The notes below the pieces were generated by a model that was given only the letters and a program-made list of their open reading frames with translations, did no database searches and was not told the origin of the DNA. The position numbers and the translations under genes were made by a program. This document shows positions 5,723 through 63,444 of a DNA stretch of 64,000 nucleotides, in pieces. Location: assembly GCA_021081985.1 (NCBI GenBank), contig GCA_021081985.1_3639.1, one strand, 5' to 3'. The DNA is from a phage. Positions within the stretch are counted from its first letter, which is position 1; each line of letters starts with the position of its first letter.

Positions 5723-6129
5723 TCTCGGTGTTGGATTACACACCGGAGTTTGCCTTGAAATCTAATGTTGGGGGTTTCCATGTAAATCCGAAAGCTGGGT
5801 CATACATCGCTGTCCCGACAGAGTGGGTTTTTGATGAACGGTTATCACCAAGCGATCTGCAAAGATTGATACGCTTGTTGTGGAGATACGAGTATTTCAA
5901 GAATCTGAACCCTCTGGGTGGGGAACTGGTATTCTTTCCGTCACAACAATCCTTGTGTGGCCTGTTGGGGTGGAATGAAAACTCACGAACCAAAGTGTCT
6001 GAATTTCTGTCTCGGATGGAGAGCTTTGGTTATATCAGGCGTGTTAGATCAGGATTTCAGGATTCTGATGGTAACGTGAAACCAAGAAATTATATTATCG
6101 TCAATCGTATCAGAGGGGATAAATCATGA
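5704..6129 (+). CDS. hypothetical protein
   Basis: 141 aa ORF, 4-nt overlap with the downstream Prs-like gene; start uncertain because it overlaps the promoter-like site. Confidence 0.4.
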   Translation: MGLWVAFSVLDYTPEFALKSNVGGFHVNPKAGSYIAVPTEWVFDERLSPSDLQRLIRLLWRYEYFKNLNPLGGELVFFPSQQSLCGLLGWNENSRTKVSEFLSRMESFGYIRRVRSGFQDSDGNVKPRNYIIVNRIRGDKS

Positions 6130-6935
6130 ATATTCGTTTGAGTTTGAACAAGCTACATGTGCCAGTTGACCATTTCACATTTAGTGGTGGTGAGGAGCAG
6201 ATTAAGATCGATATGCGTCATGTTCCGCATGGTTCGATAGGTTTTGTTGATATCTTCGCTAGACTCAAGAACTCACAGGATGTGATGTGTTTGGCACTGC
6301 TTGTTGATGCAGTTAATCGTCTTGGCAATTTGGATGTTGGTGTGGAAAAGGTTTTACACCTGCCGTACATTCCGTATGCTCGACAAGACCGAGTTATGAA
6401 CCCTGGAGAATCTCTGTCGGTGAAAGTCTTTGCCACAATGATTAACTCGCTTGGTTTCCACAAAGTCATCGTCGATGATCCACACAGTGACGTATCCGCA
6501 GCACTGATTGATAACGTGAAAATTCGTTCTCAGACTGATTTGTTCTTGAACATGAATTTTGATTTTGATCTGCTTACGGACGAATCGCTTGTGTTGGTTG
6601 CTCCAGATGCAGGTGCACGCAAGAAGACCCAGAAGGTTGCTGATACCTTGGAACTATCTGTGGTTGAAGCAGGTAAAATCCGTGATGTGGGAACAGGGGC
6701 AATCACAGGCACAACAGTGTTTGGTGATGTTGGTGGGAAGACATGCCTGATTGTCGATGATATCTGCGATGGTGGGTTTACGTTTACAAACTTAGCTCAA
6801 GCCTTGAAAGCTGCTGGTGCAAAACGTGTTATTTTGTATGTTACGCATGGAATTTTCTCTCGTGGGAAAGAATTTATTCTCGACGGTGGTGTTGACGAAA
6901 TTTATGCATACTACGACTGGACAGAAAATTTTTAA
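6126..6935 (+). CDS. PRPP-synthetase-like phosphoribosyl pyrophosphokinase
   Basis: 269 aa; PRPP-binding signature LVAPDAGA and IVDDICDGG. Confidence 0.7.
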   Translation: MNIRLSLNKLHVPVDHFTFSGGEEQIKIDMRHVPHGSIGFVDIFARLKNSQDVMCLALLVDAVNRLGNLDVGVEKVLHLPYIPYARQDRVMNPGESLSVKVFATMINSLGFHKVIVDDPHSDVSAALIDNVKIRSQTDLFLNMNFDFDLLTDESLVLVAPDAGARKKTQKVADTLELSVVEAGKIRDVGTGAITGTTVFGDVGGKTCLIVDDICDGGFTFTNLAQALKAAGAKRVILYVTHGIFSRGKEFILDGGVDEIYAYYDWTENF

Positions 6936-6999: not shown

Positions 7000-8715
7000 A
7001 TGCTTCACAAAGAAAGTCCATTGCTGTTTGCAGATTTTTATAAACCAAGTCACATCTCGATGTACGACAAACGTTCACAGTTTGTTCAAGACAACATGAC
7101 ACCACGCAATGCGAAACACTTTGTACACTTTGCAGATGATGACCATCGTGTAATGTTTGCTGGTCTTCAGGGATTTATCAAGTGGTTCCTGATTGACATG
7201 TTTAATAATAATTTCTTTGCTTTACCGAAAGAAAAGGCGATTCAGGATTACAAAGAGATTTGTGATTTGAGCATTGGGAAGGATGCTGTTGAAACTTGGG
7301 GTTTTGAGAGATTGCATGATCTTGGATATCTCCCAATTGAAATTAGAGCTTTGCCTGAAGGAACTCTTGTTCCTGTTCAGGTTCCTATGTTCACGATTCA
7401 GAACACGCACCCTGATTTTTACTGGCTGCCAAACTTCCTTGAGAGCGTGATCTCCTCGGAGACTTGGAAGACAATTACCACGGCAACGACTTTCTGGCAA
7501 TATCGTAAACTATCAGAACTGTGGGCAAAGAAAACATGTGATAACAACGATCACGTTCCTTTCCAGAACCATTGTTTTGCATACCGTGGTGAAGCTGGAA
7601 CACATGACGCAGCACAGAGCGAATTTGGGCAACTGATTAGCTCAATGGGCACAGATACAATTCCAGCGATTGTTTACGCAAATCGCTATTACAACATGAA
7701 AGGTCGCTTTGTTGCTGGGTCTATTCCCGCATCTGAGCATAGCGTAGCGACAACGAACATTGGTTTTATTGTTGAGCGTATCCAGCAGGAAAATCCTGAC
7801 ATGTCGCTTGCTGAAGCACGTTTTCGTGCTGAAGTTGAGTTCTTAAAGCGTTATGCAACAGAGATTTTTCCGTCAGGCTATGCTTCATACGTCGCAGACA
7901 GCTATGATTTTTGGGCAATCATTACACAAGCAGCCAAAATCCTGAAAGATGAGATTATGTCTCGTGATGGCAAGCTGGTCTTCCGACCGGACAGTGGGAT
8001 CCCAGAGCACATCATTGCTGGCTATCGTGTGTGCTCTCAGGAAGAATGGGCAACGGGACAGTGCTGTGATATGGATGCTGTGCTGTTTAAAAATGGCAAA
8101 TATGTCACTCTGTACGAGATGTCCAGAGACACTTCTTGGATGCGAGATTCGGAAGGCAACCTCGTAGATTGGAAATCTTTGACAGGTGATGAATTTACAA
8201 ATTATCTTACCAAAGAGGAGGTTAAGGGTGCTGTACAATGCTTGTGGGAAATCTTTGGTGGTAGTGTAAACTCTTTGGGTTACAAAGTTCTTGATAGCCA
8301 TGTTGGTTTAATCTACGGAGACTCTATCACAATCTCTCGTGCTAAAGAGATCTTTGAGCGCCTTGAAGAACGAGGCTTTGCTTCCAGCAACATTGTGTTT
8401 GGTGTAGGATCTTATACAACGCAATATACAACCCGTGATTCTCTTGGGATGGCTGTAAAAGCTACTGGTGCTGTGATTGATGGCAGACAAGTAATGGTTG
8501 TAAAAGAGCCTAAGACTGATCTTGGGAAGAAATCTGCGAAAGGTTTTGTTAAAGTTATTCGTGGTGATGATGGTGAGTTGAAGCTGGTAGATAATCTTGG
8601 TATTAATCAGGTATCTGACCCTGACAACGAGCTTAGAACAGTTTTTGTTAATGGTAAGCTGCTTGTGGATGAGGATCTTGAAGAAATTCGTCAAAGAGCT
8701 TTGTCACAGCTTTAG
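7000..8715 (+). CDS. nicotinamide phosphoribosyltransferase family protein
   Basis: 571 aa; N-terminus LFADFYKPSH and overall length typical of NAMPT/NadV. Confidence 0.75.
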   Translation: MLHKESPLLFADFYKPSHISMYDKRSQFVQDNMTPRNAKHFVHFADDDHRVMFAGLQGFIKWFLIDMFNNNFFALPKEKAIQDYKEICDLSIGKDAVETWGFERLHDLGYLPIEIRALPEGTLVPVQVPMFTIQNTHPDFYWLPNFLESVISSETWKTITTATTFWQYRKLSELWAKKTCDNNDHVPFQNHCFAYRGEAGTHDAAQSEFGQLISSMGTDTIPAIVYANRYYNMKGRFVAGSIPASEHSVATTNIGFIVERIQQENPDMSLAEARFRAEVEFLKRYATEIFPSGYASYVADSYDFWAIITQAAKILKDEIMSRDGKLVFRPDSGIPEHIIAGYRVCSQEEWATGQCCDMDAVLFKNGKYVTLYEMSRDTSWMRDSEGNLVDWKSLTGDEFTNYLTKEEVKGAVQCLWEIFGGSVNSLGYKVLDSHVGLIYGDSITISRAKEIFERLEERGFASSNIVFGVGSYTTQYTTRDSLGMAVKATGAVIDGRQVMVVKEPKTDLGKKSAKGFVKVIRGDDGELKLVDNLGINQVSDPDNELRTVFVNGKLLVDEDLEEIRQRALSQL

Positions 8716-8728
8716 CAGCATAATCATT

Positions 8729-8751
8729 CCCCTCCGCACGGAGGGGTTTTT
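8729..8751 (+). terminator. rho-independent terminator
   Basis: CCCCTCCG-cac-GGAGGGG followed by TTTTT. Confidence 0.7.
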
Positions 8752-8976: not shown

Positions 8977-9044
8977 TTGACAAAAATAAACACCACTGAT
9001 AAGATCTAATAACAAGATAAAAATAAAGTTAGTGGTGATTTGTT

Positions 9045-9293: not shown

Positions 9294-9575
9294 AAATCGT
9301 AAACAAAGACGTGCAGAAGCTGCAATGAAAAGATCACGGAGAAAAGTAAGATGACCAAAACGTATACTGAAGAGACGCATAAACAAGTTGAGTTGTTGCT
9401 TTGTAGGTTACAACAGTGTATTGACAGAGTTCGTATTTTACGTTTTGAGTTTGAAAATAATATCTCTTAATGTGAGGAATGTATGAGAAAAGGTATTGAT
9501 TTTGAAAAAGAAGTTGGTTTCGGGGAAGGGTGTCATCAAGAAGAAAATTGGGATGTTTAAAATTTTAAAATATCT

Positions 9576-9604
9576 CTTGACAATGTAGATCATACAGGAT
9601 AACA
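9576..9604 (+). promoter_or_regulatory. sigma70-like promoter upstream of tRNA-Met
   Basis: TTGACA, 17 nt, TAACAT, about 22 nt before the tRNA 5' end. Confidence 0.5.
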
Positions 9605-9626
9605 TCATCTCATACCAAAGAGATAC

Positions 9627-9702
9627 GGCCCCTTAGCTCAGTGGTTAGAGCAGGTGACTCATAATCGCTTGGTCGCTGGTTAAAGTCCAGCAGGGGCCAC
9701 CA
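9627..9702 (+). tRNA. tRNA-Met (CAU)
   Basis: Acceptor GGCCCCT/AGGGGCC, anticodon loop CTCATAA, T-arm GGTTAAAGTCC, encoded CCA. Confidence 0.8.
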
Positions 9703-9754
9703 AATGTGGCACACGAAATAAACTAGGTTTATTGTTTTCGGAGGAGAAAACTTA

Positions 9755-10078
9755 ATGGCTAAGAAACAGTCTGCTAAAAAGGTATCAGCTATCGAGGCGA
9801 TCAAGCAACCTTTTCAGTTTGAATCAAAATCCACGCAGACACATTCTGCACCGCACGATGTGCGTCTTGGTGGCAAAACGCAAACTGTAGCAGTTCTGAA
9901 AAAACGCAAAGATGAAGACGGTAATACTGAAATGTATTATGAATCTGTGTCTCGTGTCATTGGTGGTGAAGTGATTTCTGCTTCCTATCGTATCCGTACT
10001 GGGAAAACAAAGCGTGAACGAGAAGTGAAACAGAAAACAAGCACTCCTGTAGGAAACGTTAAGAAAACTAAAAAATAA
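9755..10078 (+). CDS. hypothetical Lys-rich basic protein
   Basis: 107 aa ORF directly after tRNA-Met. Confidence 0.4.
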   Translation: MAKKQSAKKVSAIEAIKQPFQFESKSTQTHSAPHDVRLGGKTQTVAVLKKRKDEDGNTEMYYESVSRVIGGEVISASYRIRTGKTKREREVKQKTSTPVGNVKKTKK

Positions 10079-10154
10079 TTTACTGACGAGAGTGCCACCG
10101 TGAGCCAGCGTCATTAAACAAAGGGAATCACGGACATTCAGGAGGGTTGAGATT

Positions 10155-10346
10155 ATGATAGGATCTTTGCTTAAGATTGCAAGCGATGTAACAACAACGG
10201 CTGTTGAAGTGACTGCTGCGGTAACAACTCCGTTTGTTGATTTAGCATCAGATGCTATAGCAGCAGCAGACGAGATGATTTTGTCACCGACATCTGATCT
10301 TGTCCAAGATCTTTGTGATTCTATAAAAGATGCTGTAAAAGATTAA
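10155..10346 (+). CDS. hypothetical small acidic protein
   Basis: 63 aa, rich in Asp/Glu/Ala/Thr. Confidence 0.35.
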   Translation: MIGSLLKIASDVTTTAVEVTAAVTTPFVDLASDAIAAADEMILSPTSDLVQDLCDSIKDAVKD

Positions 10347-10354
10347 AATTTTTC

Positions 10355-10383
10355 TTGACATAGTTTTTGTTTTTCTGTATAGT
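10355..10383 (+). promoter_or_regulatory. sigma70-like promoter
   Basis: TTGACA, 17 nt, TATAGT. Confidence 0.55.
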
Positions 10384-10419
10384 TACTTTATCAAAGCTAA
10401 TTTACATAGGAGAGATTGA

Positions 10420-11067
10420 ATGTCTACTAAGATTTCCGTAACTCGTGCACTTGCTTCTATCTCTAAGATTGAAGATAAGATCAATAAGCGCATTTATAAC
10501 CTTGAATGTATTAAGATTGCAAAAGGAACTGAGAATAATTGTAAGATTCCTGGTTATATCGGCTCTGTTGATGATTTTAAGAAATCTGCGATCAACGACT
10601 ATCAAAGTCTGCAAGACCTCTTGGCAGTTCGCGATGAACTGAAGGCAAAAATTGTCAAGTCTAATGCTGAGACAATTGTCAAAATTGGTAAGGTGTCTAT
10701 GACAGTTGCTGAGGCAATCGAACGCAAACGGACGATTTGCTTTAAACAAGAGTTGTTAAACAAACTTTGTGCACAGCGTGCTTCTGCACAGCTTCTTCTG
10801 GCAAAAGAAGAAAAATCTCTGGAAGATAAACTTGAAAATGCCAGAGCGCCATATATCCAACGTGATAAAGCGCCAGATGCAGAGCAGATTAAGACTGTGG
10901 AAGCTCCCATTCGAATGATGAACACACCATCGGTTGTGGATCCTCTTGAACTGGCTTCTAAGATTCGTTCTCTTGAAGAAGAGATTGAAGATTTCTTGTC
11001 TAACGTTGATTTTGCGTTGTCTGAGTCAAACGCTAAGACAGAAATTGAGATTGAGCACTCTCTCTAA
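10420..11067 (+). CDS. hypothetical coiled-coil protein
   Basis: 215 aa, charged and helix-rich. Confidence 0.5.
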   Translation: MSTKISVTRALASISKIEDKINKRIYNLECIKIAKGTENNCKIPGYIGSVDDFKKSAINDYQSLQDLLAVRDELKAKIVKSNAETIVKIGKVSMTVAEAIERKRTICFKQELLNKLCAQRASAQLLLAKEEKSLEDKLENARAPYIQRDKAPDAEQIKTVEAPIRMMNTPSVVDPLELASKIRSLEEEIEDFLSNVDFALSESNAKTEIEIEHSL

Positions 11068-11432
11068 AAGGCTCTGATAATATCATTATCGTTCCTTTGT
11101 TTTGAAATTTAAAACATTGCTTTTGATTAACGAAGTTTACATCATCTTGCCTCCTGGGGATTGGAGGTTAAATATTCCCCACCATGTATCGTATATGTAT
11201 GAGGATAATACAGAACATAGATGCAGCGAGGCACACGAAGATGCTTTGTTGTTTCCACTAAGTAAAAGTTCATACAATAAAGGTCAATGGTTAAATGTGA
11301 AAGATGAAACTTGAAAGTTGACTCTTGAAAGATAAAATTTCGTTTATCATCTGAAATCCTTGACACAGGTTATGGCTCACAAGATATGGTCTGTAAAGCC
11401 TCAAGGCTGTTAATCGGAAGCAATGTCTTATT

Positions 11433-11507
11433 GCTCGTATAGCTCAACGGTAGAGCACCTGCCTTGTAAGCAGGGGGTTGCAGGTTCGAAACCTGCTGCG
11501 AGCACCA
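11433..11507 (+). tRNA. tRNA-Thr (UGU)
   Basis: Acceptor GCTCGTA/TGCGAGC, D-arm GCTC..GAGC, anticodon loop CTTGTAA, T-arm GCAGGTTCGAAACCTGC, CCA. Confidence 0.8.
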
Positions 11508-11509
11508 AT

Positions 11510-11606
11510 GCTGGGTAAGCCCTTTGGCAAGGGCGAGGATTTATAATCCTGAAAATAGACGGGCTAGCCGTTGAATACATAGGTGGTTCGATTCCATCAC
11601 CCAGCC
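11510..11606 (+). ncRNA. non-canonical tRNA-like RNA
   Basis: tRNA-type acceptor (GCTGGGT/ACCCAGC), D-arm and T-arm (GGTGGTTCGATTCCATC), but the anticodon position is a closed hairpin AGGATT-tat-AATCCT followed by a second tight hairpin; about 97 nt, no CCA. Confidence 0.4.
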
Positions 11607-11807
11607 ACAAGTTTGTTTTATAGTGTATTAGCTTATATTATTCGATATAAATGCCTGATCAGCATTTGTTGTGAATGAGGCATACAATGCGTGAGAAAGC
11701 TATCGGTGCGCAACGTTGATTTCAAACGTAGTCATGCTCGTAGAGCACCAACTGTGGAAGTTGGAGGGTGGTTGAGTAACCATACACTATAAAGCATTCT
11801 TTAAAAT

Positions 11808-11892
11808 GGGCGGTGTCCCCACACAAGTCTTCTAAACTTGTACTTAAAAAGTGGGAAGGAAGTGAGAGGTTCGATTCCTCCACCGTCTACCA
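11808..11892 (+). ncRNA. non-canonical tRNA-like RNA
   Basis: 3' end TTCGATTCC...ACCGTCTACCA with a pairing 5' segment GGGCGGT, no D-arm, internal hairpin ACAAGT-cttctaa-ACTTGT. Confidence 0.3.
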
Positions 11893-11968
11893 GATTAACC
11901 CCAACTTGAGAATCGTCAGCGCGGCTCGTAAGACCCACTCTATAGGTTCTCTACCTGGGGTGCTTATT

Positions 11969-12045
11969 GCACGGTTGCCGGAATTTGGTTACGGGTCTGT
12001 CTGCAAAACGGATATATGTCGGTTCAAGTCCGACACCGTGCTCCA
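11969..12045 (+). tRNA. tRNA-Cys (GCA)
   Basis: Acceptor GCACGGT/ACCGTGC, anticodon arm TCTGT-CTGCAAA-ACGGA, T-arm GTCGGTTCAAGTCCGAC, CCA; D-stem imperfect. Confidence 0.65.
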
Positions 12046-12082
12046 AACTTTCAATTTCTTGGCAAATATGTTAAAATACCAC

Positions 12083-12111
12083 TTGACAGATATGTTTTTA
12101 TTTGATAATAT
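12083..12111 (+). promoter_or_regulatory. sigma70-like promoter
   Basis: TTGACA, 17 nt, TAATAT, followed by RBS and ATG at 12132. Confidence 0.6.
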
Positions 12112-12131
12112 CATTAAGTGGGGTTTTTAAA

Positions 12132-12479
12132 ATGGCTACTAAGCAGCTTACAAAACGTAGAAGAGGAAAAGGTCGTCCTCTGAAAGAGGAATCTAATGCA
12201 ATTCAGTTAGAGAAAAATATCCTAGATTTGAAAACGAATCTGATTGCAATGATTCCTGAAGCTCATCAGGTTCTTAGGGATTTGATGAAGAATGTGAATA
12301 CAAAAGACAATATCAGAGAAAATATCGCTCGTTATGTTATTGAGAAAGGTGAGCAGATGCTTTCTGATTACTTTGATGAGGAAAACGAAGAGTTACTCGA
12401 AAAAGATAACTCAGAAAAAGCGCCTATTAAGGCAGCCAAACCATTCTCGACGGATATTGTTCAATTCAAACAAGGTTAA
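12132..12479 (+). CDS. hypothetical protein with basic N-terminus
   Basis: ORF track 12102..12479; start moved to the ATG after the promoter and RBS (MATKQLTKRRRGKGRP...). Confidence 0.45.
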   Translation: MATKQLTKRRRGKGRPLKEESNAIQLEKNILDLKTNLIAMIPEAHQVLRDLMKNVNTKDNIRENIARYVIEKGEQMLSDYFDEENEELLEKDNSEKAPIKAAKPFSTDIVQFKQG

Positions 12480-12480
12480 T

Positions 12481-12570
12481 GTGTCGTTAGACCGTAGGGG
12501 TAGCGGGGGAGACTGTAAATCTCCTGTCTCGAAAGGGACTCGGGTAGTTCGACTCTATCACGGCACACCA
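12481..12570 (+). tRNA. tRNA-Tyr (GUA), type II
   Basis: Acceptor GTGTCGT/ACGGCAC, anticodon arm GGAGA-CTGTAAA-TCTCC, long variable arm, T-arm GGTAGTTCGACTCTATC, CCA. Confidence 0.75.
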
Positions 12571-12638
12571 ACTAAATCTGTACTGGCTTTGATGTGTGAC
12601 GATACCCTCCAATCGTGGTTGTTGGGTCAGTACAGTTT

Positions 12639-12714
12639 GGGAGTGTAGATCAGTTAGTAGATCGCTCGACCGATAATCGAGAGGACGTAGGGGCAGAGCC
12701 TACCACTCCCACCA
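12639..12714 (+). tRNA. tRNA-Ile (GAU)
   Basis: Acceptor GGGAGTG/CACTCCC, D-arm GATC..GATC, anticodon arm CTCGA-CCGATAA-TCGAG, CCA; position 33 is C and the T-loop is atypical. Confidence 0.6.
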
Positions 12715-12719
12715 AATAT

Positions 12720-12794
12720 GCATCCATAGTTTAATTGGGAAAACTACAGCCTTCCAAGCTGAAGTCGAGGGTTCGATGCCCTCTGGATGCTCCA
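12720..12794 (+). tRNA. tRNA-Gly (UCC)
   Basis: Acceptor GCATCCA/TGGATGC, anticodon loop CTTCCAA, T-arm GAGGGTTCGATGCCCTC, CCA. Confidence 0.75.
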
Positions 12795-12919
12795 GTTAAA
12801 AGATGTCAATGAAATCCGCTTGGGTCAACTGAAGACCGTAACAAATTCCATGGGGTTGTGTTTGCGGTCCAACCCTAGACATCTTCTATCTTTAGTAGAA
12901 GGCTTTAATACGGACGAGT

Positions 12920-13150
12920 ATGATGGTTTCTAAATTAATCATAACAAGGCATCATAATGCTAAAGAAATAGAGATTGTGAATGCTGCTGGCACTCTTGTG
13001 CTAAAAGTTGGTAAAGACTGTCCTTTTGAATTGTGCCAGAAGGAACTTTTAAGTTTGTGCGGTTTCAGGTTTAAACAGATTATCTTTGAAAATGCTTTTC
13101 AATATTCAGACTTAAACCAGTACATTATATCTAGGCTTGATCCTGCATGA
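12920..13150 (+). CDS. hypothetical small protein
   Basis: 76 aa ORF, 4-nt overlap with the next gene. Confidence 0.35.
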   Translation: MMVSKLIITRHHNAKEIEIVNAAGTLVLKVGKDCPFELCQKELLSLCGFRFKQIIFENAFQYSDLNQYIISRLDPA

Positions 13151-13704
13151 GATACTTGAAATATTTATCTTGGATCCTGTTAGCACCTCTTGATCCAATT
13201 ATGTCGGCTCTCTGTGTTATTCTGGCTCCTTTTGTTGTTCCGTTCTATAATGAGAAGACAGGGCATCTACCCTATATTTTCAGGTGGATGGAAACATATG
13301 ATAATCCTATAGACGGTGACAGAGGACACATAGAGAGATGGGAAGAAGTCCGTAAAATAGGAAGTTTTGGTGTTTACCTACAACGAGTTGCTTGGTTGTG
13401 GAGAAATAAAGCCTACAATTTTTCCTATCACGTACTTGGACGTGAAATCGCATCTGTGACAAAGTGGAAAGGAAACATCCATGTAAGCTCTGATGTGGAG
13501 GATAATCAACAAGGCTATTTGTTGATGTGGAATGACAATGCGTGGGGTGTATTCGCGTTTGTCCCGTCTTTTAGATTGTTTGGAAAACAATTTTACTGGC
13601 GAATTTATGTCGGTTGGAAACTGAAGAGTGTGGTTCCTGAAGACAGAGCTTTTTCAAGAGAGAGGGTGATGTTGGCATTTTTCATAAGTCCTTTCCGAAA
13701 ATAG
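13147..13704 (+). CDS. hypothetical membrane protein
   Basis: 185 aa, hydrophobic N-terminal segment LSWILLAPLDPIMSALCVILAPFVVPF. Confidence 0.45.
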   Translation: MRYLKYLSWILLAPLDPIMSALCVILAPFVVPFYNEKTGHLPYIFRWMETYDNPIDGDRGHIERWEEVRKIGSFGVYLQRVAWLWRNKAYNFSYHVLGREIASVTKWKGNIHVSSDVEDNQQGYLLMWNDNAWGVFAFVPSFRLFGKQFYWRIYVGWKLKSVVPEDRAFSRERVMLAFFISPFRK

Positions 13705-13710
13705 TTTTTA

Positions 13711-13792
13711 ATGAGAGTAGCGTAACTTCACTGGGTGAAGGCTGGCCTCCAAAACCAGTGACTAAGAGGTTCGATTCCTCACTCTCGTGCCA
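13711..13792 (+). tRNA. tRNA-like, possibly tRNA-Trp (CCA)
   Basis: Acceptor ATGAGAG/CTCTCGT, loop CTCCAAA, T-arm GAGGTTCGATTCCTC, CCA; D-region is over-long and non-canonical. Confidence 0.4.
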
Positions 13793-13793
13793 A

Positions 13794-13869
13794 AGGGGAT
13801 TAGCATAGTGGCCTAATGCAACGGGCTTTGACCCCGTGATCGGTTGTTCGAATCAACCATCCCCTGCCA
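13794..13869 (+). tRNA. tRNA-Gln (UUG)
   Basis: Acceptor AGGGGAT/ATCCCCT, D-arm GCAT..ATGC, anticodon arm ACGGG-CTTTGAC-CCCGT, T-arm GGTTGTTCGAATCAACC, CCA. Confidence 0.8.
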
Positions 13870-13878
13870 AGTTAAAAC

Positions 13879-13968
13879 GGAGAAGCAAATCGATTGGCGA
13901 CGAAACCACATTGGAAATGTGCTGACTGGTAAAACGGCTTGAGAGTTCGATTCTCTCCTTCTCCACCA
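13879..13968 (+). tRNA. tRNA-Ser (GGA), type II
   Basis: Acceptor GGAGAAG/CTTCTCC, anticodon loop TTGGAAA, long variable arm, T-arm GAGAGTTCGATTCTCTC, CCA. Confidence 0.7.
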
Positions 13969-13982
13969 GTTTTTAAGGATTT

Positions 13983-14726
13983 ATGTATGCACTCTCCCCA
14001 AGAAAAAAAAATGGAAAACAGATATTTAATTTGTTGAAAAGCGGAAAAGGCTTCTCAAACCCGCTTCAATCAGGTCTTTCTCTGGTTGGTGGTAAAGTAA
14101 GTAGTCTATCTTCTTTATCTTCCTCTATTTCTTCGGTAACTAACCCAGCTATAAAGGCTCAATTAGCTGCCGCAGGTTTGACAACTGGCGTTTTATCAAA
14201 TTTTACTTCGTCTCTTGGTTCTGTTACAAGCACGACAAAAACGCTTGTTGATTATGGTCAGAAATCTGTTGAAGAGTTCTCCCAAAGAATGCACGCAGCG
14301 AGTAATTATATGAGTACTCTGAGCAGAATGGGAGAAAAGACAAGTTGTTCAATATTTAGTGACGTTATGTCTGTAGCCACTGATTTAGGTAAGAAAGCTA
14401 TGGATGCCGTTAATTCCGCGATGGATGCGGTGAACGATGTTATGTCTCAATTGCAAGATGCAATAAATAAGGGTTTGAATACAATATCTAGTTTGGCGAG
14501 TAAAGCTGTCTCAGCGATAAACAAAGGGATCCAGAAAATGTCTGAGTATGCTAGCCAAGTGACAAAGATGATTGAAGATGAAGCAAAGAAGTTGGCAGAC
14601 TACTTAAAGACAAGTGCTGAAGGATTTCTCGCAGATATCCTACCTGATTGGTTTAACGATTCTTGTAAATCTGGTATAGTTGACCAGATTGCTACACCAG
14701 AGATGAAAGAAGTTCTTAAAAAGTAA
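13983..14726 (+). CDS. hypothetical protein with Ser/Thr-rich N-terminus and amphipathic helical repeats
   Basis: 247 aa; repeated AMDAVN/SAINKG-type helices. Confidence 0.5.
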   Translation: MYALSPRKKNGKQIFNLLKSGKGFSNPLQSGLSLVGGKVSSLSSLSSSISSVTNPAIKAQLAAAGLTTGVLSNFTSSLGSVTSTTKTLVDYGQKSVEEFSQRMHAASNYMSTLSRMGEKTSCSIFSDVMSVATDLGKKAMDAVNSAMDAVNDVMSQLQDAINKGLNTISSLASKAVSAINKGIQKMSEYASQVTKMIEDEAKKLADYLKTSAEGFLADILPDWFNDSCKSGIVDQIATPEMKEVLKK

Positions 14727-14728
14727 TT

Positions 14729-14822
14729 GGAAGATTAACCCTAATTTGGTAAGGGGTCTCCCTGCTAAGGAGATAGTAACCCAGAAATGGGTGTGCCAGT
14801 TCAAGTCTGGCATCTTCCTCCA
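14729..14822 (+). tRNA. tRNA-Ser (GCU), type II
   Basis: Acceptor GGAAGAT/ATCTTCC, anticodon arm TCTCC-CTGCTAA-GGAGA, long variable arm, T-arm GCCAGTTCAAGTCTGGC, CCA. Confidence 0.75.
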
Positions 14823-14901
14823 CTGTATGTCAAGGCTCAGATTTCTTCGGACCTGGGCGTTCGCCTTTGTTGGGTGTATATTCTCGGCAGAGGCTATCTT
14901 T

Positions 14902-14990
14902 GGAGGCTGGGGTGCATGGTGCACAAGCTGGTTTGAACCCAGTCCCGCTGTAGAGATATGGTGACAGTTCGATTCTGTCAGCCTCCTCCA
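14902..14990 (+). tRNA. tRNA-Ser (UGA), type II
   Basis: Acceptor GGAGGCT/AGCCTCC, anticodon arm GCTGG-TTTGAAC-CCAGT, long variable arm, T-arm GACAGTTCGATTCTGTC, CCA. Confidence 0.7.
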
Positions 14991-15213
14991 AGTTATCTTT
15001 AATGTAGCTTGTTTAGTTGCTTGGTGTGATTTTTCGGTGGATGGCTGCAACCATCTTATCGATACCCCAGAGCAGTCCGCTCTTTACTGGCGTAAGCCAA
15101 ACACTTATGATGGTCATGTAATCGTAATCTATCATTAGTGTGCTCTCCCTGGAGAGCTGTTGCGTATAGCTAATTATTGTGTGAGTAATTAGCTATTTTA
15201 AAGATAATTTGAC

Positions 15214-15290
15214 GGATCTGTAGCCAAATGGTTTAAGGCACTCGACTTTTAATCGAGAGATTGTTGGTTCGAATCCAACCAGATCCACCA
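15214..15290 (+). tRNA. tRNA-Lys (UUU)
   Basis: Acceptor GGATCTG/CAGATCC, anticodon arm CTCGA-CTTTTAA-TCGAG, T-arm GTTGGTTCGAATCCAAC, CCA. Confidence 0.85.
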
Positions 15291-15299
15291 AAATATTCA

Positions 15300-15390
15300 G
15301 GTTCTTTGACCGAGTGGTCGATGGTGACGGCCTGTTAAGCCGTTGGGAGGAATCTCCCCACCGAAGGTTCGAATCCTTCAGGAACCGCCA
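15300..15390 (+). tRNA. type II tRNA with GUU anticodon (nominally Asn)
   Basis: Acceptor GGTTCTT/AGGAACC, anticodon arm ACGGC-CTGTTAA-GCCGT, 19-nt variable arm with hairpin GGGAG/CTCCC, T-arm GAAGGTTCGAATCCTTC, CCA. Confidence 0.55.
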
Positions 15391-15474
15391 ATTCTTGACT
15401 TAATCAAGTCACAGATATCACCTAGCCAGCGATACCAGTTAGTAGATTCTGGGACAATTAAAATCTACATTTCT

Positions 15475-15552
15475 CTGTCCGTAGCGCAGCTTGGGTAGCG
15501 CGGGTCACTTGGGATGATCAGGTCGTTGGTTCAAATCCAACCGGACAGACCA
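15475..15552 (+). tRNA. tRNA-Pro (UGG)
   Basis: Acceptor CTGTCCG/CGGACAG, D-arm GCGC..GCGC, anticodon arm GGTCA-CTTGGGA-TGATC, T-arm GTTGGTTCAAATCCAAC, CCA. Confidence 0.8.
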
Positions 15553-15594
15553 ATAAACATATACATATCAAAGCAGAAATGTACAGAGGATACC

Positions 15595-15786
15595 ATGTTA
15601 ACAGTTAAAGTCGTATCTCCAAATGATGAACAAATTTTTTGTGGGAAAATTGTTGGGTATTGTGCTCATCAAAAGTCTATAGCTATTTCAGGTATTGACC
15701 AAAAAGTGTTTTTGTCTGAGGATCAGACCGCTTATGTGATCAATGCCAATGGAAAAACTATTTCTGTGTATCGTGGAAAACCGTAA
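15595..15786 (+). CDS. hypothetical small protein
   Basis: ORF track 15514..15786 begins inside tRNA-Pro; internal Met (MLTVKVV...) taken as start. Confidence 0.3.
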   Translation: MLTVKVVSPNDEQIFCGKIVGYCAHQKSIAISGIDQKVFLSEDQTAYVINANGKTISVYRGKP

Positions 15787-15800
15787 CTCTTAATATAAAT

Positions 15801-15877
15801 GGGCGATTGATGGAATTGGTATACATGTCAGGCTTAGAACCTGAATTTTGGGGGTTCGAGTCCCTCATCGCCTACCA
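15801..15877 (+). tRNA. type I tRNA with UAG anticodon (nominally Leu)
   Basis: Acceptor GGGCGAT/ATCGCCT, anticodon arm TCAGG-CTTAGAA-CCTGA, 5-nt variable loop, T-arm GGGGGTTCGAGTCCCTC, CCA. Confidence 0.55.
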
Positions 15878-15882
15878 ATTAT

Positions 15883-15958
15883 GTGACGGTAACTCAGTTG
15901 GTAGAGTGCCTTGCTGAAGACTAGGTGGTCACAGGTTCGAATCCTGTCCGTCACACCA
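15883..15958 (+). tRNA. tRNA-Phe (GAA)
   Basis: Acceptor GTGACGG/CCGTCAC, D-arm ACTC..GAGT, anticodon loop CTGAAGA, T-arm ACAGGTTCGAATCCTGT, CCA. Confidence 0.75.
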
Positions 15959-15973
15959 AACAGGAAATAGATT

Positions 15974-16204
15974 ATGCGAAGAAAATTGAAGAGTGCATAT
16001 ATCCAAAAAATAGAGACAGTTAGAAAATTTTGTGCTGGGTGGCCTCTTATTCTACTTATTGCCGATTCTAGGTATACTACTCAAGATGTGAAGAACTACA
16101 AGAAAGTAGATAAGTATTGTCGGACAAAGAAAGGAAGACTTGATGGTACTTATGAGATCCATTTTGGTCATCCACCTAGAAGGATTTCTCTTGGTAATAA
16201 ATGA
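15974..16204 (+). CDS. hypothetical small protein
   Basis: 76 aa ORF between tRNAs. Confidence 0.3.
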   Translation: MRRKLKSAYIQKIETVRKFCAGWPLILLIADSRYTTQDVKNYKKVDKYCRTKKGRLDGTYEIHFGHPPRRISLGNK

Positions 16205-16208
16205 ACAT

Positions 16209-16284
16209 TGCGAGTTTGAAGTCTGGTGACTTCGCTGGTCTCATAAGCCAGTCCAGATTGGTTCGATCCCAATACTCGCAACCA
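16209..16284 (+). tRNA. tRNA-Met (CAU), second copy
   Basis: Acceptor TGCGAGT/ACTCGCA, D-arm GAAG..CTTC, anticodon arm CTGGT-CTCATAA-GCCAG, T-arm ATTGGTTCGATCCCAAT, CCA. Confidence 0.75.
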
Positions 16285-16416
16285 GAATTAAAGTGGACAC
16301 TAAGGAAGGTCGTGGCTGAGTAAACGGTAAGACACTCTCGACATGTAAAGGTTCCTTCGCCACTTTTCTCAAATAACTATAATAATAATCCAATCAATCT
16401 CCTCTCCTATGCCTAA

Positions 16417-16440
16417 CCCCGCCTCTTGCGGGGTTTTTCT
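16417..16440 (+). terminator. rho-independent terminator at end of tRNA island
   Basis: CCCCGC-ctctt-GCGGGG followed by TTTTTCTTT. Confidence 0.7.
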
Positions 16441-16486
16441 TTATGTGCTAGTCTTTACGCATCTTGTTTTGTACTTAAGGATAGCT

Positions 16487-17848
16487 AAGATGTTGCATGT
16501 TTTCAAAAAAGAAGATTTTCAAAGAGAGTATGACATTTTGTGCTCTTTTATACCAAAAGGTGTTTATGATTTATTGTCAAAGCTGGATGTTAAGATAGCT
16601 GGCGGTGCAATAACCTCTTTGTTCTCTAATAGTAAAGTCAACGATCTTGATTTGTATTTCCCATCTTGGGAAAGCCTTGAGATATTCATTGCGTACATGA
16701 TGGATAAAAGACTCTTGTCAGGGAAATATGATTTGTCTAAGAAAACAAATGGCTGGGCGTCAGATCAAAAAATAGCATTTAGGCATTTCTATAAACTTGA
16801 TCACGGTGATCCAGCATTTTCAAATTTTACAGATCCTCTTTCTATAGGTAGAGAATATGACAATGAATACGATTATTTATGTGATGAAGATGATAATTTG
16901 CCAACCATGAAAAAGGTTGGTGTGACAGATAAGAGTGTGATGTTTTACTTTGGACAAGAGCCTGTCTTTCAATGTGTGGCTGTGGATGTGTTCAAAACAA
17001 CAGAAGACATCTTTAGCAAATTTGATTTTACAATAAATATGGGTGCTTTTAACTTCAAAGATGGTGTGTGGGAATTTAATAGCAATTTCTTAAAACATAT
17101 TGCTCAAAGAGTTTTGGTTGTAAATCATAAAACTGAATACCCGATTATGTCACTTTTGAGATCTGAAAAATACAAATCTCGTGGCTATACAATTTCGAAA
17201 AAAGAGACAATGAAACTGGCTATGACCATTGCTAACCTTCAGATAGAAGGTTGGGAATCGGCAAAGTCACATCTTAGCGGGATGTACGGAATGAAACTGT
17301 CAGATATTTTTGATGAGACAAAACAGTTTTCACTTGATTCTTTGGTTGAGTGCCTAGACAGATTAGAATCTTGTTGCCAGCAGGTAGACAAAAATGTTAC
17401 CCCTGTGCAACCGTTGCCGTTTAATGATGTATCTAAAGTTAATATGTTTAATATTTTTCAAAGATTAAGAAAAGCAACAGGCAGGAAATACTTTACAAAA
17501 CTATATGGGGTTTGTCCTGCTGAAGTTTTCTATCTTATGATGCCAACAAAAGATACACATTATGTTGGGCTTTACAAAGAAGATATAGCAAATAATTTTC
17601 CCACTCTCAGACTTTATGTTGATGAGAAGAAGGCAAGAGAATATTACGAATACCTGTGTGAGTGTGGTAAGACAGATGGTTATGGATGCCTAATGTATAA
17701 ACCTGGGGCAGTTCTCTTAGATGTCTCAATAAGTGATCCATCTAAGATGCAATACGATATCATAACTGATGAGATTAATATTTATGAAAACAGAAAAACA
17801 ACATTGAAAATTGAAAACATTATTGTGTGTGATGGGGATATATCATGA
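16487..17848 (+). CDS. hypothetical protein, possible Pol-beta-type nucleotidyltransferase fold
   Basis: ORF track 16409..17848 starts inside the terminator; likely start is ATG at 16487 with RBS AAGGAT. N-terminal GGAITSLFSNSKVNDLDLYF fits the G[GS]-x9-13-DxD signature. Confidence 0.45.
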   Translation, partial: KMLHVFKKEDFQREYDILCSFIPKGVYDLLSKLDVKIAGGAITSLFSNSKVNDLDLYFPSWESLEIFIAYMMDKRLLSGKYDLSKKTNGWASDQKIAFRHFYKLDHGDPAFSNFTDPLSIGREYDNEYDYLCDEDDNLPTMKKVGVTDKSVMFYFGQEPVFQCVAVDVFKTTEDIFSKFDFTINMGAFNFKDGVWEFNSNFLKHIAQRVLVVNHKTEYPIMSLLRSEKYKSRGYTISKKETMKLAMTIANLQIEGWESAKSHLSGMYGMKLSDIFDETKQFSLDSLVECLDRLESCCQQVDKNVTPVQPLPFNDVSKVNMFNIFQRLRKATGRKYFTKLYGVCPAEVFYLMMPTKDTHYVGLYKEDIANNFPTLRLYVDEKKAREYYEYLCECGKTDGYGCLMYKPGAVLLDVSISDPSKMQYDIITDEINIYENRKTTLKIENIIVCDGDIS

Positions 17849-63184: not shown

Positions 63185-63444
63185 AGAGAGTTCGTTACGC
63201 TCTCCCGCACCATTACGTGCATAGCCACAAGATTTCTCCTGTGGGTCGGACTATTTCATCCTCCTAATGTTAAGGAGGCCTCCCGTTTCGACCGCACTTG
63301 CTGGCCTACTCTACTCGCTTTCACATTACTAGTGTGCTTTCGATAGTCTCTGAACGTTCATCCCGTAGGGATGCTTCGCTGCGGATTAGCATATTGAACT
63401 TTTACCACTTTTACGTATAAAAGTCAACTTAGCCTTCCCGTCAA
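63185..63444 (-). mobile_element. putative ORF-less group I intron in DNA polymerase gene
   Basis: About 260 nt non-coding insert between the motif B and motif C exons; contains a 38-nt core (63351-63388) nearly identical to the terminase intron. Boundaries approximate. Confidence 0.5.

Follow-up and report, generated by a model that had tools for sequence, protein, structure and literature searches.

A tract of phage DNA in which tRNA-like sequences alternate with small open reading frames (ORFs) raises the questions of how many of the RNAs are tRNAs, whether they are expressed together, and what the phage gains from them. We address these for positions 9,576 to 16,440 of a 64,000-nucleotide (nt) phage contig (GCA_021081985.1_3639.1, GenBank assembly GCA_021081985.1; the whole 64-kb stretch is referred to as the window). 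The original prediction for this region, made from its letters, was of a co-oriented tRNA island with sigma-70-type promoters, polycistronic precursors and an intrinsic terminator. This central proposal is supported, as far as sequence comparison can speak to it, with corrections to the tRNA count, to the identity of one tRNA, to the promoter of the Thr block (which has its own, at 11311) and to the precursors, which are predicted to be mixed mRNA-tRNA transcripts. With high confidence we regard the region as the tRNA island of an Av-05-like virulent coliphage, a trimmed version of the 24–26-tRNA array of phages PVP-SE1 and GAP31, for which we propose transcription by the host polymerase and a role in codon supply. 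Much more tentatively, one of its members, an RNA at 11808–11892, may be a working tRNA-Arg(UCU) with a rewired fold.

The island and its relatives

The window derives from a close relative of Escherichia phage Av-05 (Avunavirus, Vequintavirinae; ~96% identity). In a DNA search, positions 9500–16500 match Av-05 at 96.4% identity over 89% of their length, and match vB_EcoM_TH18 and its siblings at 95.9% identity. A more sensitive search ties the region to the tRNA arrays of the Seunavirus phages PVP-SE1, GAP31, 4MG, FENT2, SalP219 and LNA4, and also to the Mydovirus arrays of Proteus phage Mydo and Klebsiella phage KB57, with DNA similarities of 71–79% over 23–40% of the query. The order of the blocks and the flanking genes are common to the window and all ten of these relatives (Av-05, TH18, GAP31, PVP-SE1, 4MG, Mydo, KB57, FENT2, SalP219 and LNA4).

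The correspondence is most easily seen with PVP-SE1, GAP31 and 4MG. First, the arrays lie between the same flanks, with small genes on the side of the nicotinamide phosphoribosyltransferase (NAMPT) gene at one end, and the phrog_16176 gene, Rz spanins and terminase at the other. Secondly, the block order is the same, running from a CAU tRNA through a gene for a 215-amino acid (aa) protein, Thr to Cys, a 115-aa gene, Tyr, Ile and Gly, Trp and Gln, three Ser tRNAs, Lys and Asn, Pro, and finally Leu, Phe and a second CAU element. Thirdly, they share the promoters, the terminator, a type II tRNA-Asn, a type I tRNA-Leu and a tRNA-Ile with C33. They differ in having 24–29 elements compared to the 19 of the window, which in turn has extra genes at 12920–13704, 13983–14726 and 15974–16204 relative to the Seunavirus arrays. 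The annotated arrays of the relatives hold 24–26 tRNAs each, and ARAGORN runs on them give 25–29 per locus; the array in the window is a reduced form, without Lys-CUU, Leu-UAA, Glu, His, Asp, Arg-ACG, Ala and Val, such that about 8–10 Seunavirus tRNAs are absent. A phage tRNA island is itself of a known kind, already displayed by these related phages, and is under-annotated.

The tRNA inventory

There are 19 tRNA-type elements, all on the + strand between 9627 and 16284 (Table 1), seven of which are structurally atypical. ARAGORN at default settings reports 14 tRNAs, all on the + strand within the 6.3 kb from 9627 to 15958, and no tRNA in the other 57 kb of the window, and this cluster is therefore not a product of chance. 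Eleven of the 14 also pass the Rfam tRNA gathering score (29 bits); the exceptions are Tyr, Ser-GGA and Ser-UGA, which do not reach it and are ARAGORN calls. Rfam adds two more, at 12639–12711 (53.4 bits) and 11510–11606 (33.1 bits). At least 17 canonical tRNAs had been predicted, a number that we do not reproduce; taking a canonical tRNA to be one found by ARAGORN at default or scoring above the RF00005 gathering score, 16 of the 19 elements qualify, and those at 11808–11892, 13711–13792 and 16209–16284 do not. A defensible count is thus 14 to 16 by software and 19 with comparative evidence. The three failing stretches match only the Rfam tRNA-Sec model, and then below threshold (11807–11889, 13715–13786 and 16210–16279). 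We do not assign a tRNA-Sec identity to any element: the RF01852 scores (28.5–37.4 bits) fall short of the gathering score of 47, the anticodons are UCU, CCA, CAU and UAU, and only the form of the D arm is common. A 3′ CCA is encoded in 18 of the 19 elements, the exception being that of 97 nt.

The tight spacing noted originally is confirmed, with gaps of 1–9 nt. The Trp-like element ends at 13792 and tRNA-Gln begins at 13794; tRNA-Thr and the 97-nt element are separated by 2 nt, Ile and Gly by 5 nt, Leu and Phe by 5 nt, and both Gln and Ser and Lys and Asn by 9 nt. Minus-strand ORFs that run across the tRNAs (e.g. 14640–15050) are taken as spurious because they overlap conserved tRNA genes.

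The first element, at 9627–9702, had been read as tRNA-Met, which is also the ARAGORN label. It is, however, 97.4% identical over 76 nt to a gene annotated as tRNA-Ile (CAU) in 5416 of 5426 E. coli genomes, and its SalP219 orthologue carries a tRNA-Ile annotation; this tRNA is therefore of the Ile2 type and not a tRNA-Met, and it would read AUA after modification to lysidine by TilS. The inventory has corrective value in general, as the Av-05 and TH18 records contain hypothetical coding sequences (CDS) only across the island, with zero annotated tRNAs, and the Av-05 genome note counts 9 tRNAs (PMC4463512) compared to the 19 elements described here.

We also note that the tRNA-Lys(UUU) of Seunaviruses has a 9–10-nt D-loop insertion and is 86–87 nt long (6444–6530 in locus L003, 7066–7151 in L004, and orthologues), and that ARAGORN mislabels these long-D-loop forms as Glu(ctc) or Phe(gaa), or leaves them unassigned; the form in the window has the ordinary length of 77 nt.

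Table 1. Coordinates of RNA elements, predicted signals, structural parts of the Arg-like RNA and protein genes of the island and its borders.
Feature	Coordinates	Strand	Detection and remarks
Predicted intrinsic terminator after NAMPT gene, upstream boundary of the transcription block	8729–8746	+	7-bp stem, 6 GC pairs, then TTTTTCATTC
Predicted sigma-70-type promoter TTGACA-N17-TAAGAT, extended −10 TG	8977–9005	+	Kept as TTGACAAAAAT...CTGATAAGAT in all relatives
Predicted promoter TTGACA-N17-TAACAT, ~50 nt upstream of first tRNA	9577–9605	+	Pattern scan and conservation
tRNA (CAU), tRNA-Ile2 (ileX) type	9627–9702	+	ARAGORN (label 'Met'), Rfam 66.8 bits
ORF 107 aa, phrog_6662	9755–10078	+	E 5e-46; CDS in Av-05 and TH18
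ORF 63 aa, phrog_9123	10155–10346	+	E 5.5e-27
Predicted promoter TTGACA-N17-TATAGT (11/12 consensus positions)	10355–10383	+	Pattern scan; Av-05 has the same
ORF 215 aa ('coiled-coil gene'), phrog_1491, related to T5.085	10420–11067	+	E 5e-76
Predicted promoter TTGAAA-N16-TAAAAT, serving the Thr block	11311–11338	+	Non-consensus; kept across genera (N16/17)
Conserved leader, ~95 nt, between the 11311 promoter and tRNA-Thr	11336–11432	+	Alignment
tRNA-Thr (UGU)	11433–11507	+	ARAGORN, Rfam 73.6 bits
97-nt tRNA-like element	11510–11606	+	Rfam tRNA 33.1 bits
tRNA-Arg(UCU)-like RNA	11808–11892	+	Covariation
Arg-like RNA, 8-bp acceptor	11808–15 with 11881–88	+	All 8 pairs covary; 8th pair GC, AU, UA
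Arg-like RNA, helix H2, 5 bp, enclosing the anticodon stem	11818–22 with 11851–55	+	3′ strand is the GYNGG segment
Arg-like RNA, anticodon stem, 6 bp	11823–28 with 11836–41	+	
Arg-like RNA, anticodon loop CTTCTAA	11829–35	+	
Arg-like RNA, helix H4 (ACNU with ANGU), crossing H2 (pseudoknot)	11842–45 with 11860–63	+	Covaries through four combinations
Arg-like RNA, T stem, 4 bp	11866–69 with 11877–80	+	Invariant
tRNA-Cys (GCA)	11969–12045	+	ARAGORN, Rfam 52.3 bits
Predicted promoter TTGACA-N17-TAATAT, extended −10 TG	12083–12111	+	Kept in 10/10 relatives; annotated promoter in PVP-SE1
ORF 115 aa ('AT-hook-like'), phrog_3330	12132–12479	+	Orthologue of PVP-SE1 gp081, annotated as similar to rV5 gp070
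tRNA-Tyr (GUA), type II	12481–12570	+	ARAGORN; Rfam only sub-threshold tRNA-Sec-model match; orthologues annotated tRNA-Tyr
tRNA-Ile (GAU)	12639–12714	+	Rfam 53.4 bits; missed by ARAGORN
tRNA-Gly (UCC)	12720–12794	+	ARAGORN, Rfam 61.5 bits
ORF, phrog_14202	12920–13150	+	Overlaps next ORF
ORF, DUF7338, phrog_2143	13147–13704	+	Overlaps 12920–13150
tRNA-Trp (CCA)-like element	13711–13792	+	ARAGORN only at -ps80; Rfam tRNA-Sec model 34.4 bits, sub-threshold
tRNA-Gln (UUG)	13794–13869	+	ARAGORN, Rfam 61.2 bits
tRNA-Ser (GGA), type II	13879–13968	+	ARAGORN only; orthologues annotated tRNA-Ser
ORF 247 aa, DUF7217, phrog_2114	13983–14726	+	Between tRNA-Ser(GGA) and tRNA-Ser(GCU)
tRNA-Ser (GCU), type II	14729–14822	+	ARAGORN, Rfam 40.8 bits
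tRNA-Ser (UGA), type II	14902–14990	+	ARAGORN only; orthologues present in relatives
tRNA-Lys (UUU)	15214–15290	+	ARAGORN, Rfam 77.3 bits
tRNA-Asn (GUU), type II	15300–15390	+	ARAGORN, Rfam 57 bits
tRNA-Pro (UGG)	15475–15552	+	ARAGORN, Rfam 60.5 bits
ORF 63 aa, phrog_3909	15595–15786	+	Av-05 CDS of same length
tRNA-Leu (UAG), type I	15801–15877	+	ARAGORN, Rfam 60.7 bits
tRNA-Phe (GAA)	15883–15958	+	ARAGORN, Rfam 68.4 bits
ORF 76 aa, phrog_7065	15974–16204	+	E 5e-35
CAU tRNA-type element with Sec-like D arm	16209–16284	+	Rfam tRNA-Sec model 37.4 bits, sub-threshold; ARAGORN -ps90 mislabels as Glu
Predicted intrinsic terminator closing the island	16415–16444	+	GC-rich hairpin AACCCCGC-CTCTT-GCGGGGTT then TTTCTTTAT
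452-aa protein gene, phrog_16176, first beyond the terminator	16490–17848	+	Resembles class II tRNA nucleotidyltransferases (CCA-adding enzymes)

Promoters and terminators

The window was scanned for exact matches to TTGACA-N17-TAnnnT and compared with 100 shuffled versions; it contains 11 compared to 1.19 expected, and none of the 100 shuffles reaches 11. Perfect boxes of this type stand where the original prediction placed them, before the first tRNA (at 9577, given as 9576) and before the genes of the 215-aa (10355) and 115-aa (12083) proteins. A TTGACA-N17-TAnnAT site lies 42–50 nt upstream of the first tRNA in each of the ten array-bearing relatives, and the promoter before the 115-aa gene is likewise present in all ten; across these relatives the hexamers and their spacing are kept while the spacer sequences diverge. 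Promoter annotations have been published at the equivalent sites of PVP-SE1 and rV5, and the tRNA clusters and sigma-70 promoters of both phages were described previously, including 33 consensus promoters and a discussion of codon supply in the rV5 paper (PMC3606486).

The Thr block is apparently served by a non-consensus site at 11311. A TTGACA at 11361 was considered in its place, but would need a 19-nt spacer, and it was dropped because TH18 has TTGGCA and other genera have no site, the 11311 site being the conserved one. The leader between the 11311 promoter and tRNA-Thr has 84% mean column identity across 8 phages, exceeding the surrounding intergenic DNA, and contains the invariant segment GCTCACAAGATATGG; we do not interpret it as a structured RNA, as it is conserved in sequence with almost no covariation and has no Rfam match.

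The GC-rich terminator predicted after the last tRNA (at 16417) corresponds to the hairpin at 16415–16435 and its T-run. A hairpin of the form (G/A)CCCCGC-loop-GCGGGG(C/T) followed by a T-run is found downstream of the last tRNA in 10 of 10 array-bearing relatives, either as GCCCCGC-loop-GCGGGGC and TTTTCTTTT or as the AACCCCGC variant, 43–193 nt after the last tRNA, and there is no other strong + strand terminator inside the island. That the promoters and the terminator are conserved is the strongest indication we have that these signals would function, and it supports mixed polycistronic precursors that are bounded by the terminator. They would be mixed mRNA-tRNA transcripts, since the promoters at 10355 and 12083 stand directly before protein genes.

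Codon usage

The original prediction suggested a comparison of the anticodon set with phage and host codon usage, and we have made it with 65 long ORFs of the window and 42 annotated E. coli K-12 genes. The codons most enriched in the phage are AGA (12.4x), AGG (6.8x), AUA (6.8x) and ACA (6.2x), followed by GGA, CCU and UCU (~2.8x), UCA (2.4x), and AAU and AGU (2.3x). Three of the first four, AGA, AUA and ACA, are matched by a cognate anticodon of the island; AGG would be covered only if UCU reads it as well, by wobble. Codons cognate to the island anticodons have a median enrichment of 1.54x compared to 0.83x for the rest (Mann-Whitney p = 4.8e-4), and the anticodon set thus matches the codons that this AT-rich (40% GC) phage over-uses relative to E. 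coli.

We propose that host sigma-70 RNA polymerase would start at the same-strand promoters at 8977, 9577, 10355, 11311 and 12083, read through the small phage genes and tRNAs, and terminate at the conserved 16415 hairpin. The mixed precursors could then be cut into tRNAs by host RNase P, RNase E and 3′ exonucleases, and these tRNAs would supply decoders for the A/U-ending codons AGA, AUA, ACA, GGA, UCU, UCA and AAU.

An Arg(UCU)-like RNA with a rewired fold

The element at 11808–11892 has an exact tRNA-Arg(UCU) anticodon loop, CTTCTAA, a T arm and an A-CCA 3′ end, but no D hairpin can be formed within it; its 5′ strand pairs instead with sequence 3′ of the anticodon arm. The resulting structure (Table 1) combines 8 acceptor and 4 T-stem pairs (an 8/4 branch) with a helix, H2, that encloses the anticodon stem, and a further helix, H4, that crosses H2 as a pseudoknot. 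In an alignment of 16 distinct sequences 97.2% of cells are paired and 17 of 27 pairs show compensatory changes, a number reached by none of 500 shuffles, and when the partners are slid along the alignment pairing falls to ~40%. The fold has a z-score of −2.1 relative to shuffled controls. If H2 stacks on the anticodon stem, the two run on for 11 pairs, roughly as long as the D and anticodon stems of an ordinary tRNA together, and an L shape is therefore plausible.

The family is widespread and largely phage-restricted. BLAST finds 340 phage records that match the element at 75–88% identity, 301 of them Vibrio phages (those listed having ~114-kb genomes), together with Acinetobacter phages KARL-1 and ME3, Aeromonas phages and the Salicola jumbo phage SCTP-2. 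Members of the family are carried by phages of E. coli, Vibrio, Acinetobacter, Aeromonas and Salicola. Of the 340 matching records, not one of the 30 listed annotates the element as a tRNA. A pattern scan recovers it in 25 IMG/VR contigs and in 2 of 185,579 species-representative bacterial genomes. From E. coli phages to those of Vibrio, Acinetobacter and Salicola, the anticodon and T loops of the family are invariant. Under a covariance model built for it (R1) the window copy, which is part of the model's training alignment, scores 105.6 bits, and all ordinary tRNAs in 584 kb of phage and E. coli sequence score at most 32 bits. ARAGORN reports nothing at 11808–11892 either at -ps70 or in mitochondrial mode, and its call on one family member (L098) is a forced, mis-registered fit. 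Hundreds of phage genomes thus contain this RNA, yet ARAGORN and Rfam do not see it. The next-best R1 match is a different D-hairpin-less element with a UCU anticodon and a 7/5 branch in Mydo and KB57 (loci L006 and L089, 4705–4786), which sits at the array position of the Seunavirus canonical tRNA-Arg and is presented as a small hypothetical CDS in Mydo and is unannotated in KB57.

Three observations suggest what the RNA might do. First, TH18, which is ~96% identical, and the Seunaviruses have a canonical tRNA-Arg(UCU) exactly at this position. Secondly, ARAGORN finds no other tRNA in positions 12,000–111,999 of Av-05 or elsewhere in the window, and no canonical tRNA-Arg(UCU) is therefore detected in this lineage. 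Thirdly, AGA is the most over-used codon. We accordingly read the element as a candidate AGA decoder, and it may be a working tRNA-Arg(UCU) whose fold has been rewired, with an enclosing helix, a pseudoknot and an 8/4 branch but without a D hairpin, and which belongs to a near phage-only family, although we hold this with rather less than even confidence.

In the literature the 8/4 and 9/3 tRNAs described by Mukai et al. (2017, PMC5389517) come closest, but they possess both a D arm and a long variable arm; the terms 'UCU' and 'pseudoknot' occur 0 times in that paper, and no D-hairpin-less pseudoknotted Arg(UCU) form is described there. We found no description of a D-arm-lacking or 'armless' phage tRNA in the searchable literature, the coverage of which is incomplete. 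Among tRNAs without a D hairpin are the metazoan mitochondrial tRNA-Ser(AGY), in which a lengthened anticodon-side helix keeps the L shape. Relative to such mitochondrial tRNAs, the phage RNA keeps a full T arm and a D-stem-like helix, has a second, crossing helix, and, being encoded by a bacterial virus, must suit a standard bacterial ribosome and EF-Tu. If it does decode AGA it would be a natural tRNA of a bacterial system without a D arm, bearing on what the ribosome, EF-Tu and ArgRS require and on tRNA engineering, and censuses of phage tRNAs would be undercounts.

Other atypical members

The other six atypical members are tRNA-Ile(GAU), tRNA-Asn(GUU), tRNA-Leu(UAG), the Trp(CCA)-like element, the CAU element at 16209 and the 97-nt element, and all are conserved. 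The tRNA-Ile(GAU) keeps C33 in all 7 orthologues and has the T loop GGCAGAG in place of the usual TTCRANY; the PVP-SE1 T loop is likewise without TTC, the T stem is compensated and the fold z-score is −2.6. The tRNA-Asn(GUU) is 91 nt long with a long variable arm and G73, and 14 of its 22 pairs are compensatory across 9 phages; that of Proteus phage Mydo has the ordinary 75-nt form. Derivation of the type II form from a host tRNA was considered, but it has no BLAST match in any E. coli genome at E <= 1, and we draw no conclusion from the likeness between its T arm and that of tRNA-Tyr. Conversely, tRNA-Leu(UAG) is a 77-nt type I form without a long variable arm that is homologous to an 85-nt type II form in Mydo; A73 is kept, and the anticodon stem is compensated among relatives. 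The variable arm is not known to be required by E. coli LeuRS.

In the Trp-like element the acceptor is 8 bp, the T stem 4 bp and the connector 7 nt long, the D arm consists of a 6-bp stem and a 3-nt loop, and the end is G73-CCA. PVP-SE1, SalP219 and Mydo have elements of this form, and 4 of the 6 D-stem pairs are compensatory; GAP31-type phages have a normal tRNA-Trp at this site. It keeps A1-U72, G73 and the CUCCAAA loop, which together form the TrpRS identity set; its z-score is a weak −1.2, for a fold begun 2 nt inside the acceptor stem. The CAU element at 16209 has a 7/5 branch, a 6-bp D stem with a 4-nt loop, U1-A72 and a GCG...CGCA-A-CCA acceptor end. This form is common to FENT2, SalP219 and LNA4, with compensation in the D, anticodon and T stems (8 of 16 pairs), and has a fold z-score of −3.44. 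The identity of this element may be Met, initiator-like or Ile2; its acceptor end resembles that of initiator tRNA, but the initiator's three anticodon-stem G-C pairs are absent.

The 97-nt element has a 7/5 acceptor/T branch and a long variable arm; its D arm is Sec-like (6-bp stem, 4-nt loop), and its anticodon loop TTTATAA is read as UAU. Its fold z-score is −3.35, and across 6 phages 9 of 28 pairs are compensatory, with covariation in every one of its stems (acceptor, D, anticodon, variable arm and T). We find it in 160 phage records, which call it tRNA-OTHER, Lys or TERM or leave it unannotated.

Six of the seven atypical members encode a 3′ CCA, and each has an intact anticodon loop and a paired acceptor end; they are for this reason most likely working tRNAs, with their departures kept by selection. 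If so, the Arg-like RNA, the 8/4 Trp, type II Asn, type I Leu and C33 Ile forms and the CAU element would suggest that phages remodel the tRNA body and keep decoding, possibly as an escape from host enzymes that recognise tRNA shape.

Points against, and alternative explanations

Several points weigh against this interpretation of the island as a source of decoding tRNAs. The three stretches at 11808, 13711 and 16209 fall below the default thresholds of both finders, and what supports them is covariation among relatives. The 97-nt element has no encoded CCA, and its anticodon loop varies, being TTTATAA here, TTTTTAA (UUU) in rV5 and TCA-containing in an Erwinia phage; because it differs between close relatives we doubt that this element has a fixed decoding role. 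Charging of the Arg-like RNA is only putative, because E. coli ArgRS uses A20 of the D loop and this loop is absent. At 10355 and 12083 the consensus promoters may act chiefly for the protein genes immediately downstream, and the baseline for the codon comparison is a 42-gene K-12 sample rather than the expressed genes of the real host. From the observed sequence features, gene order, conservation of signals, covariation and codon statistics we infer transcription starts, read-through and processing, as well as charging and decoding.

A different view of what the island is for is that its main selective value lies in counter-defence, the phage tRNAs standing in for host tRNAs lost to cleavage or depletion by immune nucleases that target tRNAs. 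The odd shapes, from C33 in tRNA-Ile, altered D arms and variable arms gained or lost to the rearranged Arg-like RNA, would be poor substrates for such nucleases. We regard this as possible though doubtful, and it is compatible with codon supply. It would account for the departure of 7 of 19 members from the host architecture, with anticodon and acceptor ends kept and the changes conserved, and for the C33 of tRNA-Ile(GAU) in all orthologues. There are precedents in anticodon-loop changes that protect phage tRNAs (PMC10264068), in the neutralisation of PARIS by the T5 tRNA-Lys (PMC11464382) and in a phage tRNA-Tyr that rescues infection from retron effectors (PMC11555353), and we note that a CCA-adding-like enzyme adjoins the island and that host systems cutting tRNA 3′ tails exist (PMC12851939). 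However, in E. coli there is no known nuclease directed at the majority of these isoacceptors, the anticodon loops of Lys, Tyr and Asn are ordinary by eye, and codon supply is enough to explain how well the anticodon set follows codon demand.

It is unlikely that some of the atypical elements, above all that of 97 nt and perhaps the Arg-like RNA, are non-decoding tRNA mimics, which might divert nucleases or modification enzymes as decoys, have a regulatory role or mark the polycistronic precursor for processing, although the variable loop and missing CCA of the 97-nt element fit this idea, and allo-tRNAs with a UAU anticodon are mostly inactive in translation (Mukai et al., PMC5389517). For the Arg-like RNA the family's conservation of the exact CUUCUAA loop, N73-CCA and a 12-bp acceptor/T branch, the length that EF-Tu recognises, argues otherwise, as does its position-for-position replacement of a canonical tRNA-Arg(UCU) in a phage that uses AGA 12-fold more than the host; were it not to decode, it would be a widespread phage tRNA mimic. 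The T4 tRNA cluster includes two stable non-tRNA species, which is consistent with mimicry.

Finally, that the elements at 11510, 11808, 13711 and 16209 are functionless pseudogenes decaying out of a shrinking larger array is very improbable: the array has indeed lost genes, both finders reject three of the elements at default and GenBank marks some neighbouring elements as pseudo, but for each one there are related elements in other genera, or in unrelated phage families, in which compensatory base changes maintain the helices, the Arg-like anticodon and T loops are invariant across phages of four hosts (Vibrio, Acinetobacter, Salicola and E. coli), and three of the four folds are more stable than shuffles (z-scores of −2.1, −3.35 and −3.44 for the Arg-like, 97-nt and CAU elements), the Trp-like fold (−1.2) being weak.

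Comparison with other phage tRNA clusters

Phage rV5, of the same subfamily, has an orthologue of the 115-aa gene (55% identity) directly upstream of its tRNAs, consensus TTGACA promoters and a deposited sigma-70 'P(tRNA)' promoter. It shares the 97-nt Sec-like element at 94% identity, with a UUU-type loop, which is unannotated in rV5 and labelled Lys, OTHER or TERM in relatives. It differs in having only 6 annotated tRNAs, in one tight block and in another order. The clusters of T4 and T5 also have co-oriented tRNAs, polycistronic precursors processed by host RNase P and exonucleases, and interspersed small ORFs and stable non-tRNA RNAs. They belong to other phage families and have no order in common with the island, and T4 uses its own middle and late promoter classes, in contrast to the plain sigma-70 sites of the island. 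In putative T5-like genomes a phrog_1491 gene stands next to the tRNAs, as it does in the window.

Phage tRNA clusters with 8/4 Ser and His tRNAs have been described previously (Mukai et al. 2017, PMC5389517). The Arg-like and Trp-like elements share the 8/4 branch with the allo-tRNAs of that study, whereas the 97-nt and CAU elements are 7/5. In the allo-tRNAs a long variable arm confers serine identity; this arm is lacking in the Arg-like and Trp-like elements, and the 97-nt element has it together with a 7/5 branch. The 97-nt, Trp-like and CAU elements have in common with tRNA-Sec a 6-bp D stem with a 3–4-nt loop.

Protein genes in and beside the island

Small ORFs had been predicted to be interleaved with the tRNAs, and all nine of them match PHROG families of unknown function; two match Pfam DUFs. 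Neither the 215-aa nor the 115-aa protein has a Pfam match. Homologues of the 215-aa protein (phrog_1491) have co-oriented tRNAs downstream in 55 of 79 IMG/VR loci, and all 483 of these tRNAs are on the strand of the gene; the gene may thus be linked to tRNA regions, and the 'tail fiber' label of the family looks doubtful. In these loci (L009–L088), which include 108–122-kb contigs of putatively T5-like appearance, the first tRNA is often 315–620 nt downstream.

The 115-aa protein is AT-hook-like, with a GRP core and basic flanks (KRRRGKGRP) present across 8 phages, rV5 differing by K/R swaps and one G-to-R change, and it is a putative nucleic-acid (DNA/RNA) binder. The motif TK(R/K)RR(G/R)(K/R)GRPLKEESNAIQLEKN does not vary among the seven phages other than rV5, and from GRPLKEE onward it is the same in all eight. 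The protein is unusually conserved, with 75–81% identity between genera (the flanking DNA being ~71–79% similar) and 55% with rV5. Its stop codon is 1 nt before tRNA-Tyr, and the gene directly abuts a tRNA in GAP31, Mydo, FENT2 and rV5 as well; in PVP-SE1, SalP219 and 4MG there is a gap or a small ORF between them.

The DUF7217 gene appears to be a recent insertion, since the Ser tRNAs that flank it are 21 nt apart in Av-05 and TH18. To keep the phrog_3909 ORF clear of tRNA-Pro, its start was set at 15595, an ATG that follows an AGAGGA ribosome-binding site; the PHROG match begins at residue 28 of the longer ORF.

The first gene beyond the terminator encodes a 452-aa protein with an invariant GG-x12-DxD motif and an invariant D179 within a near-invariant FDFTINMGAF among 65 homologues (cf. 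motif B, RRDFTINA). Its AlphaFold model (pLDDT 87.9) was compared with known structures by Foldseek, and the best 22 PDB matches are all CCA-adding or tRNA nucleotidyltransferases, with E values from 2.6e-6 (5hc9, the top match) to 3e-4 and TM values of only ~0.3. It is this fold comparison that ties the protein to CCA-adding enzymes; no sequence match was found in the PDB (by phmmer or profile) or in a local copy of Pfam. Its position beside the island hints at a phage tRNA maintenance module. The family, phrog_16176, is hypothetical in all annotations, and PF26128 is found in all 90 homologues; Av-05 has a separate annotated tRNA nucleotidyltransferase elsewhere in its genome, in a part outside the window.

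Upstream of the island are the NAMPT gene (7000–8715, +) and beside it a ribose-phosphate pyrophosphokinase gene (6126–6935, +), as judged from the Av-05 annotation, which would together form an NAD-salvage pair adjoining the island. At the far end of the window there is a group I catalytic intron at 63228–63502 (−; Rfam RF00028, 78.7 bits compared to a gathering score of 50), probably within the region of the Av-05 split DNA polymerase gene and HNH endonucleases.

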